In this document: positions 1-353 of the stretch, one piece after another | Numbering within the stretch: the stretch's first letter is position 1 | How the letters are laid out: each line of letters begins with the position of its first letter | DNA from: Escherichia coli | GTDB lineage: Bacteria > Pseudomonadota > Gammaproteobacteria > Enterobacterales > Enterobacteriaceae | Assembly: GCF_003334255.1 (NCBI RefSeq) | Contig: NZ_QOWU01000255.1 | Reading direction: 5' to 3' (one strand) | Length of the DNA: 353 nt | Program-made: the position numbers and the translations under genes | Notes under the pieces: generated by a model | Database searches by the model: none | The model's input: the letters and a program-made list of their open reading frames with translations, nothing else | Told to the model about the DNA's origin: nothing

Positions 1-12
1 GTCGCGGTTTTC

Positions 13-153
13 CTACTGCTTACACTGTAAGAACGCCGCAAACTCCGCTCCCCACAAATTCAGCCGGAACTCACACAGCGAACCGTGTAACATCCAGATG
101 GTGAAGATTACCGTCATGCAAATTGTGACGGTGATAAGCGATTTTTGCGACAT
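13..153 (-). CDS. Hok/Gef-family type I toxin (small host-killing membrane peptide, HokA-like), 46 aa
   Basis: Minus-strand ORF from ATG (plus 153-151) to TAG (plus 15-13), translating to MSQKSLITVTICMTVIFTIWMLHGSLCEFRLNLWGAEFAAFLQCKQ. It has the Hok/Gef hallmarks: a short polar N-terminus, one hydrophobic transmembrane stretch (LITVTICMTVIFTIWML), the conserved SLCE motif, and an E-x-AAF C-terminal motif with a Cys near the end. From memory it aligns best with E. coli HokA (...FTWMIRDSLCELHIKQESYELAAFLACKLKE); I cannot assign a specific paralog, so no symbol is given. AGGAGG sits 8 nt upstream of the ATG. Confidence 0.9.
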   Translation of the reverse strand: MSQKSLITVTICMTVIFTIWMLHGSLCEFRLNLWGAEFAAFLQCKQ

Positions 154-158
154 AGCGC

Positions 159-187
159 TTGCCTCCTGAGTGGAGAGGCGCTAACCT
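159..187 (+). promoter_or_regulatory. Candidate promoter for the Sok-like antisense RNA (-35 TTGCCT, -10 TAACCT)
   Basis: Plus strand has TTGCCT at 159-164, a 17-nt spacer, and TAACCT at 182-187, which would start transcription near 194. The -10 matches consensus only at the conserved T1, A2 and T6 positions. It is the best-placed candidate upstream of the 213-250 hairpin, but weak. Confidence 0.25.
162..167 (-). promoter_or_regulatory. Shine-Dalgarno sequence (AGGAGG) of the hok-family toxin gene
   Basis: Plus-strand CCTCCT at 162-167 is AGGAGG on the minus strand, followed by 8 nt (CAAGCGCT) and then the ATG at 153-151. This is a perfect core SD with a canonical spacer. Confidence 0.8.
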
Positions 188-193
188 TCTACT

Positions 194-253
194 TGTCAAG
201 GAAAGAAGTGTCAGGGCCTCGGGTTAACGTTAAAGTTGACTCGGGGCCTTTCC
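194..253 (+). ncRNA. Candidate Sok-like antisense RNA (type I antitoxin), about 60 nt
   Basis: Plus-strand transcript antisense to the toxin leader: a ~19-nt 5' tail (194-212), then a 16-bp hairpin (213-228 paired with 235-250, loop GTTAAA), then TTTCC. The helix has 12 Watson-Crick and 4 G:U pairs on the plus-strand RNA; on the minus strand those 4 positions are C-A mismatches. Size and shape (single-stranded tail plus one terminal hairpin) match the roughly 64-nt Sok RNA of plasmid R1. The 5' end is inferred from a weak promoter and the U-tract is short, so both ends are uncertain. Confidence 0.4.
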
Positions 254-307
254 ACATCAGGCCTTCAGGTTCACCTTCCAGCCATCAGCCGAAAGGCACC
301 CGCGCAT

Positions 308-336
308 AATCTACGATTTTTGCCCTGCACGGGCAA
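308..336 (-). promoter_or_regulatory. Candidate sigma70 promoter for the hok-type mRNA (-35 TTGCCC, -10 TAGATT)
   Basis: On the minus strand, -35 TTGCCC (plus 336-331) and -10 TAGATT (plus 313-308) are separated by 17 nt, with a T6 run just upstream. The predicted start at about plus 300-301 gives a leader of ~150 nt, similar to hok of R1. The downstream RNA would begin GGGUGCCUUUCGGCUGAUGG, which resembles the R1 hok mRNA 5' end as I recall it (GGCGCUUGAGGCUUUCUGCCUCAUGACGUGAAGGUGG). Hexamer matches are only moderate. Confidence 0.35.
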
Positions 337-353
337 CAAAAAACCCGCCATCA

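Follow-up and report, generated by a model that had tools for sequence, protein, structure and literature searches.

The 353-nucleotide (nt) stretch of Escherichia coli DNA analysed here, hereafter the window, had been predicted to hold a hok/sok-type toxin–antitoxin locus, in which a toxin mRNA (hok) is paired with an antisense RNA (Sok). Its minus strand indeed carries an open reading frame (ORF) of 46 codons plus a TAG stop, encoding the peptide MSQKSLITVTICMTVIFTIWMLHGSLCEFRLNLWGAEFAAFLQCKQ, behind a Shine–Dalgarno (SD) sequence, a structured leader and a predicted promoter, while the plus strand carries, within that leader, a predicted promoter and gene for a short Sok-like RNA (Table 1). 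Positions beyond the window edge are given in L001, the locus with its flanking sequence.

Table 1 Features of the 353-nt window (SD, Shine–Dalgarno; UTR, untranslated region)
Feature	Position	Strand	Details
hok-type toxin gene	13..153	minus	N-terminal MSQK, one hydrophobic segment (about residues 5–22), tail with SLCE motif and Cys27/Cys44
Predicted hok promoter	308..336	minus	−35 TTGCCC (336–331), 17-nt spacer, −10 TAGATT (313–308)
Predicted hok mRNA 5′ end, tac element GGGUGCC...CGGCUGA	267..301	minus	+1 at about G301; 35-nt hairpin or helix with fbi
5′ strand UCCUUGACAAGUAG of second long-range helix	189..202	minus	Partner L001 9979–9967 in the 3′ UTR; overlaps the target of the Sok 5′ tail
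SD-sequestering hairpin	153..183	minus	Stem UAGCGC/GCGCUA; anti-SD CCUCUCC (178–172) against SD AGGAGG (167–162)
Start of hok 3′ UTR	1..12	minus	Bases 3–1 (GAC) open the 3′ hairpin GACGGGGAC-GAAA-GUCCCCGUC, cut by the window end
Predicted Sok promoter	159..187	plus	−35 TTGCCT (159–164), 17-nt spacer, −10 TAACCT (182–187)
Predicted Sok-like RNA, about 59 nt	194..252	plus	Open 19-nt 5′ tail (194–212), 16-bp GC-rich hairpin (213–250), UUUCC
3′ half of lom intrinsic terminator	338..353	minus	GGCGGG and T6 run; 5′ arm beyond the window

The assignment of the ORF to the Hok/Gef toxins, made at first from its motifs, was borne out by profile searches, with matches far too strong for chance. The peptide matched Pfam HOK_GEF (PF01848) with an i-E value of 4.7e-8 and 33 bits (residues 8–44 on positions 6–42 of the 42-position model), and PHROG 251, 'MokW-like host killing' of the category moron, with an E value of 2.8e-24 (residues 1–46 on positions 2–49 of 50). 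The Pfam domain is also precomputed on most of the 46-amino-acid (aa) homologues. As read from the sequence, the hydrophobic stretch SLITVTICMTVIFTIWML is N-terminal and is followed by a polar tail. Furthermore, all seven positions conserved in more than 80% of the 1264 peptides of a published Hok logo (M1, C16, T18, L30, C31, E32 and E41; Escalera-Maurer et al., bioRxiv 2025–26, 10.1101/2025.08.07.668861) have counterparts in the toxin, namely M1, C12, T14, L26, C27, E28 and E37, and the 33 homologues collected, all of 46–47 aa, have 22 invariant or near-invariant positions in common. Among the NCBIfam models, HokA gave the best match (E 9e-10), with a score of 38.4 bits against the curated cutoff of 89 for the HokA equivalog NF007290, and the Hok subfamily NF007279 gave 22.7 bits against a curated cutoff of 73. 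By its sequence, the peptide is thus a Hok-family protein that is neither HokA, since it falls short of the equivalog cutoff, nor a member of the NF007279 subfamily. HokA of E. coli K-12 (b4455) is nevertheless the closest named Hok, with 45% identity, followed by HokW (37% over 35 residues) and Hok of plasmid R1 (30%). The divergence from the named Hok proteins that had been pointed out is therefore real, as shown by these identities and by scores below the curated thresholds of NCBIfam and Rfam.

The locus is a genuine hok/sok-type toxin–antitoxin module, and it is already catalogued, so that the identification was right but not new. RefSeq calls the ORF 'Hok/Gef family protein' (WP_000078907.1), and the exact peptide (46 of 46 residues) is entry 72_1589 of Hok cluster 72, a high-abundance cluster, in the catalogue of Escalera-Maurer et al. 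The statement of the original prediction that 'only the divergence is new' did not survive, because exactly this peptide is WP_000078907.1, is encoded by the phages 933W and VT2-Sakai and was catalogued as 72_1589. The peptide string was absent from the main texts of the papers searched and was present in the supplementary files of the catalogue. There, 72_1589 was cloned as LRP157 under an arabinose promoter for toxicity testing, and the preprint summarises that 42 of 45 tested Hok homologues were toxic, naming 19_179, 60_1482 and 69_1540, without 72_1589, as the non-toxic ones (bioRxiv 10.1101/2025.08.07.668861); on this summary statement, the identical 46-aa peptide is reportedly toxic. In essence, the check put forward with the original prediction had thus already been made by other workers. 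By its own statement, the catalogue's analysis did not extend to mok, Sok and mRNA structure (bioRxiv 10.1101/2025.08.07.668861). Compared with Hok cluster 72, WP_000078907.1 and PHROG 251, there is no difference at the protein level, and the analysis of the mRNA structure, Sok and mok is what is added here. The impact on annotation is small, the gene being already in RefSeq, PHROGs and the recent Hok catalogue, but a 46-aa subfamily without a conserved mok, and a second, unannotated locus in the reference Stx2 phages, may be undescribed.

The limits first drawn for the locus, 13–301, were accurate in that they begin at the stop codon and end at the predicted +1 of the mRNA, and they cover part of the unit, which also includes the hok promoter, the 3′ hairpin cut by the window end (L001 10003–9982) and the fbi element, located 36–53 nt to the left of the window edge (L001 9965–9948). 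The promoters are predicted from positional and sequence homology to those of hokW and sokW, the characterised hok/sok pair of 933W and Sp5, and from conservation among the homologues. The hok −10 box varies among the homologues as TAGATT, TAAATT, TAGAAT or TACATT, and that of hokW is TAGAAT at an equal offset from GGGTGC. Similarly, the sokW promoter of 933W/Sp5 reads CC TTGCCT TTCGGCACGTAAGAGGC TAACC, with hexamers and spacing equal to those of the predicted Sok promoter, and the 12 homologues follow the pattern TTGCNN/TTGACT/TTTACT-17-TAACCT/TATCCT. In the case of sokW, antitoxin activity was lost in a 'pro-less' construct in which the −10 box was mutated (PMC8621323). When the DNA of 13 loci from three phage types and two genera was aligned, the similarity started at the hok −10 box/GGGTGCC and stopped at GGCACCC, which are exactly the ends expected for a hok mRNA. 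The Rfam model RF01794 (sok) matched positions 142..301 of the minus strand over its full length (model positions 1–157; E 4.6e-8), below its gathering threshold. The consensus of this model ends in ...AAAUG at the hok start and lies on the hok-sense strand; its hits are consequently markers of the hok mRNA leader and not of the strand that encodes Sok. The other Rfam matches in the window, CRISPR-DR12, Hrs1 and P9, had E values of 5.6–6.6 and were dismissed as chance.

The full-length hok RNA was modelled as L001 10301 to 9940. In its minimum free energy (MFE) structure (z −5.98), the 5′ segment GGGUGCC..CGGCUGA closes onto the 3′ segment UCAGCCG..GGCACCC. Indeed, RNAalifold of alignment A3, comprising 12 homologues, gave 82 pairs, 18 of them with compensatory changes, and those of the tac/fbi helix fall in columns 10–12/353–355. 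The paired cells of the alignment amounted to 95.9%, a value that dropped to 37–43% when the partners were slid by 1–3 columns, and none of 500 shuffles reached the observed covariation score. The RNA fold is under selection, as these compensatory changes show. All 12 homologues keep both of two mutually exclusive folds, a 5′ hairpin of −16.7 to −19.6 kcal/mol and the 5′–3′ duplex of −22.9 to −30.7 kcal/mol, and the 3′-truncated hok RNA adopts the 5′ hairpin in its predicted fold. The long-range tac/fbi pairing and the exclusive 5′ tac hairpin of the hok/sok architecture are thus both found, as in R1 hok, for which the switch between the duplex and the hairpin has been described (PMC9841398).

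Other helices of the alignment cover the remaining parts of the mRNA. The second long-range helix (A3 helix 6, columns 103–116/333–346) has 11 pairs, five of them with compensatory changes, and 91.7% of its cells paired. The hairpin that sequesters the SD, the last stem base of which is the A of the hok start codon, corresponds to helices 7 and 8, with 100% and 88.9% of the cells paired, and is found in the MFE structures of the full-length RNA and of its truncated form. In helix 9 (columns 155–168/258–271), hok codons 2–5 (window 136–150) pair with codons 36–41 (31–45). This mutual pairing in the mRNA accounts for the near-invariance of the two segments at the nucleotide level in E. coli and Salmonella, and the peptide motifs MSQKS and GAEFAAF are under double constraint. 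Finally, helix 14 is the 3′ GNRA hairpin, with nine pairs, five of them with compensatory changes, and 99.1% of its cells paired. The stable 3′ hairpin that bounds the processed mRNA in the hok/sok architecture is therefore present, and processing at this hairpin would follow by analogy with the known systems.

The predicted Sok-like RNA folds with −30.8 kcal/mol (z −5.2). Its start (194/195) was placed by analogy with the annotated sokW, at the seventh nucleotide past the −10 box. The design of a 5′ tail, a hairpin and a U-rich end recurs in all 12 homologues, with differing inner stems, and the putative antisense RNA gene lies inside the hok leader, as in the hok/sok architecture. The predicted pairing region extends from 41 to 100 nt upstream of the hok AUG, leaving the hok SD uncovered.

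The window is 100% identical in eight complete E. coli chromosomes, and relatives were found in 1553 of 5426 complete E. coli genomes, at 1977 places, 1960 of which are chromosomal. A plasmid origin was rejected, with only 34 matching plasmid records, none above 95% identity and some megabase-sized. Accordingly, the plasmid setting for post-segregational killing suggested in the original prediction gave way to a prophage: the flanking sequence, whose inspection had been proposed for telling a chromosome from a plasmid or island, is a prophage late region (L001, L002). In strains EC2 and G1/2, the cassette lies in this region between an Ail/Lom gene and small ORFs preceding a giant LPD38-domain protein. 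The gene annotated immediately upstream is lom, and a terminator-like site of lom, AACCCGCTGTGATGGCGGGTT+TTTTGTTG, is located at L001 10362–10342. On the other side, the 933W-like fbi contains the ATG of a downstream 133-aa ORF (phrog_610; L001 9555–9956), the GAGG of this ORF lies within the other long-range helix, and a terminator-like hairpin is found inside it, at L001 9848–9831.

The same post-lom position is occupied in P27, P13771, 933W and VT2-Sakai. In total, 198 phage records matched, mostly of Stx-converting Sepvirinae, with annotations such as 'small toxic polypeptide', 'prophage host toxic membrane protein' and 'MokW-like host killing'. In 933W and VT2-Sakai (Sp5), about 430 bp separate lom from the following ORF, and this unannotated gap encodes the identical 46 residues, at L020 3661–3801 (record 45660–45800) and L101 1102–1242 (record 44701–44841), respectively, and the reference records NC_000924.1 and NC_000902.1 leave this hok ORF unannotated. 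Since both phages also hold the annotated mokW/hokW/sokW near their right end, 933W and VT2-Sakai/Sp5 carry two hok/sok loci each. Beyond the post-lom site of the 933W-like phages, the 46-aa subfamily is found after ogr at the extreme end of P2-like prophages, which are the source of most of the E. coli matches, after gpJ in a lambdoid prophage and in Salmonella prophages. In the P2-like copies, an ordinary terminator follows fbi, and the cassette lies at the prophage edge, outside any late operon. In the IMG/VR database, 248 viral contigs hold a relative, and the enrichment of hok in prophages is also stated in the Hok catalogue (bioRxiv 10.1101/2025.08.07.668861). The cassette is a mobile prophage moron. 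As a side observation, nine of the IMG/VR contigs (L063, L068, L071, L080, L082, L087, L094, L096 and L097) terminate exactly 3 nt past the hok stop codon, which places the cassette at the edge of the predicted viral region, with the 3′ UTR and fbi outside the call.

The window thus very probably represents most of a hok/sok-type type I toxin–antitoxin cassette, which a 933W-like (Sepvirinae) prophage carries as a self-contained moron, with lom on one side and a gene of unknown function on the other. Family membership, the conserved fold, the promoter homology and the genomic setting carry this reading. On the other side of the balance, the Rfam match reached 41 bits against a gathering threshold of 59, and the NCBIfam scores were likewise below their curated cutoffs. 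Both promoters are weak by consensus, and a simple scan of the window for promoters and terminators called nothing at its threshold of 9/12, with 8/12 for the hok promoter and 7/12 for the Sok promoter. The toxicity of the peptide depends on the summary statement in one preprint (bioRxiv 10.1101/2025.08.07.668861). The covariation is good but not independent support for the fold, because 12 sequences are a small set and the alignment in question had itself yielded the structure. In the 933W-like setting, fbi has no terminator behind it and includes the start codon of the following ORF, so that the transcript may in reality end elsewhere than modelled. The SD hairpin, moreover, persists in the predicted MFE of the 3′-truncated RNA, which leaves the switching-on of translation unexplained.

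From the above, we infer the transcript ends, the processing, the mode of Sok action and the biological role of this cassette. The minus strand would be transcribed from its own promoter into a hok mRNA of about 354 nt, in the full-length form of which the 5′ tac would pair with the 3′ fbi, the second long-range helix would cover the target of the Sok tail, and the local hairpin would hold the hok SD and AUG, so that this RNA should be stable and inert. As in R1 hok, the 3′ end would then be slowly trimmed to the conserved GNRA hairpin, with loss of both long-range helices, upon which the 5′ end would snap into its own hairpin and the RNA would be open to Sok and ribosomes. The plus strand would yield, from TTGCCT-17-TAACCT, the short and unstable Sok-like RNA of about 59 nt, the pairing of which with the leader would be followed by RNase III decay, by analogy with other hok/sok systems. 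Once Sok synthesis stops, the 46-aa membrane peptide would be made and would damage the inner membrane, and the cassette would operate as a type I toxin–antitoxin module.

The closest comparison is with hokW-sokW (with mokW) of 933W/Sp5 (Takada et al. 2021, PMC8621323), which resides in the same phages, belongs to the same family, and shares the Sok promoter TTGCCT-17-TAACCT, the Sok hairpin in the leader, and an mRNA with GGGUGC at the 5′ end and its complement GCACCC at the 3′ end. However, hokW-sokW is a separate locus, found close to the right phage end instead of behind lom (hokW at record 58460–58615 in 933W), HokW has 51 aa, and an in-frame mokW, preceded by a GAGG SD, starts 57 nt upstream of hokW, whereas the present locus has no conserved mok. 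The two are consequently not orthologous, as 933W holds both at different places. HokA has in common the M-x-QK start, the WM..SLCE core and the AAFL.CK tail, but it is a 50-aa protein at a fixed chromosomal site by cspA, with an annotated mokA pseudogene and disruption by IS150. The hok/sok system of plasmid R1 resembles the cassette in the tac/fbi closing helix, the alternative 5′ tac hairpin and the protective 3′ hairpin (PMC9841398), as well as in a Sok with a single-stranded 5′ tail and a hairpin and in a small membrane toxin with SLCE. It differs in its plasmid location, as opposed to a prophage, in the low toxin identity given above and in the sub-threshold Rfam score found here, and in R1 mok is mandatory for hok translation (PMC9841398).

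A role at prophage induction is plausible on the model of hokW-sokW, with which lysis is faster and Sp5 release after induction twice as high (PMC8621323). It is especially plausible for the 933W-like cassettes, because in these the next late gene follows without an intervening terminator and has its start codon overlapped by fbi. Carried further, this would make the cassette mainly an accessory of phage lysis and release, with Hok made on induction, once Sok is gone or is overwhelmed by late read-through transcripts, and permeabilising the membrane ahead of holin and endolysin. In the sister system of Sp5, mitomycin C treatment is followed by loss of the Sok RNA, HokW precedes endolysin by about 1 h, and deletion of hokW-sokW halves phage release (PMC8621323); the post-lom cassette, too, lies inside the late region, on the tail-gene side. 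We consider such a main role possible but rather unlikely, as P2-like and some Salmonella prophages hold the same cassette at their extreme end, with its own terminator and outside any late operon, and the position in the P2-like prophages fits a selfish or stabilising moron. The roles are not mutually exclusive, and a lysis-accessory role is compatible with the prophage-borne hok/sok cassette proposed above, since it concerns the function and not the mechanism.

In R1, hok requires translation of the mok leader as far as the SD of hok, and Sok acts by blocking this step (PMC9841398). In the 46-aa subfamily, no in-frame upstream, mok-like start was found in any of 12 homologues or of 52 distinct IMG/VR cassettes, and an ATG, GTG or TTG leader ORF reading into the hok start in any frame was absent from seven of the 12 homologues and from 32 of the 52 viral cassettes. 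The other five homologues and the remaining viral cassettes have candidates at differing, non-homologous positions. As a positive control, the same script found mokW, in-frame, 57 nt upstream and behind GAGG. The expected leader organisation claimed in the original prediction therefore lacks this conserved reading frame; what held of the divergent hok/sok-type locus described there was the toxin, its motifs and most of the leader organisation, and what fell was the novelty, the plasmid setting and mok. The 46-aa subfamily has no conserved mok leader ORF, and as such it may be undescribed. Because there is no conserved mok, and Sok pairs well upstream of an uncovered SD, Sok probably acts through mRNA decay or refolding rather than by blocking mok translation.

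The leader of the subfamily is 145–149 nt long, and that of hokW 169 nt. With about even confidence, we propose that the 46-aa cassettes of cluster 72 form a mok-less branch of hok/sok, in which the leader has about 20 nt less than the hokW leader, the start codon of mok was lost and Sok still covers the old mok region, so that Sok would exert control without translational coupling, e.g. by RNase III-mediated decay or by preventing a refolding step that frees the SD, and that the second, unannotated hok/sok locus of Sp5/933W could explain partial phenotypes of the hokW-sokW deletion. The sole functional study of a prophage hok/sok, on hokW-sokW of Sp5, deleted one of two hok loci, and the second locus is a candidate for redundancy behind the two-fold change in phage release that was reported. 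The subfamily also offers a natural test of mok-free hok/sok regulation, as the mok step is held essential in the R1 paradigm.

The window allele itself holds a TTG-start ORF of 42 codons (71..199, minus strand), which raises the alternative that it is a canonical, mok-dependent hok/sok, in which translation from TTG 199 would open the hok ribosome-binding site and would be blocked by Sok. This start precedes the hok AUG by 46 nt, shares its relative frame with R1 mok, and lies a few nucleotides inside the predicted Sok-complementary region, as does the mokW start for sokW; in R1, moreover, hok depends on its mok (PMC9841398). The ORF is found in the window, in P27 and in six of the 52 distinct IMG/VR cassettes. 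However, TTG 199 has no purine-rich SD upstream (ACACUUCUUUCC), and the ORF is absent from 933W and VT2-Sakai, in which CCTTAAGC replaces CCTTGAC despite the identical toxin. In view of this, and of the counts above for the homologues and viral cassettes, obtained with a script that detects mokW, we regard the alternative as unlikely. A 22-codon ORF (257..189, minus strand) with GAAGG upstream was rejected as a leader peptide, its ATG being missing in five of the 12 homologues and followed by an immediate stop in the lambdoid prophage copy SMBL. The plus-strand ORFs (54 aa at 145..309, 23 aa and 22 aa) were set aside as antisense by-products, as 933W has different ones there. Short overlapping ORFs on both strands (145–309 and 98–169, plus; 271–351, minus) are unconserved and look like by-products of the GC-rich structured leader.

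Another reading takes the cassette as an abortive-infection module of the lysogen, in which another phage, on infection, would shut down transcription in the host, leading to the loss of Sok by decay and to cell death by Hok before the infection cycle is finished. Prophage morons often encode defence functions, and R1 hok/sok on a high-copy plasmid reportedly reduced T4 plating, as cited in PMC8621323. Nevertheless, PADLOC gave no match for the locus, and hok is not enriched near defence systems, according to a section heading of the Hok catalogue (bioRxiv 10.1101/2025.08.07.668861), which makes this role quite improbable. Finally, an inactive relic, that is, a decayed hok/sok copy neither expressed nor toxic, has precedents in the frequent inactivation of chromosomal hok loci, such as hokA/mokA of K-12, disrupted by IS150, and in decayed relatives of the cassette, namely L014 (2301–2500), in which unrelated sequence replaces the promoter and tac region, and SMBL (L008 3350–3375), with a degenerate fbi (GGCTCC against GGCACCC), but it is hardly credible here, given the intact ORF, the 46-aa length kept in the 33 homologues, the intact promoters, SD, tac, fbi and 3′ hairpin in the window/L001 allele, the selection on the RNA fold and the reported toxicity of the identical peptide (bioRxiv 10.1101/2025.08.07.668861).

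Several Salmonella contigs show the cassette in further arrangements. Two of them hold tandem copies about 490 bp apart (L010 2501–2641 and 2991–3131; L011 2501–2641 and 2995–3135). In S. diarizonae, an ORF for an Ibs-type type I toxin is located 240 nt downstream of the cassette (L013 2881–2940), and two other contigs carry a YafO toxin gene upstream of it (L011/L012 1845–2228).

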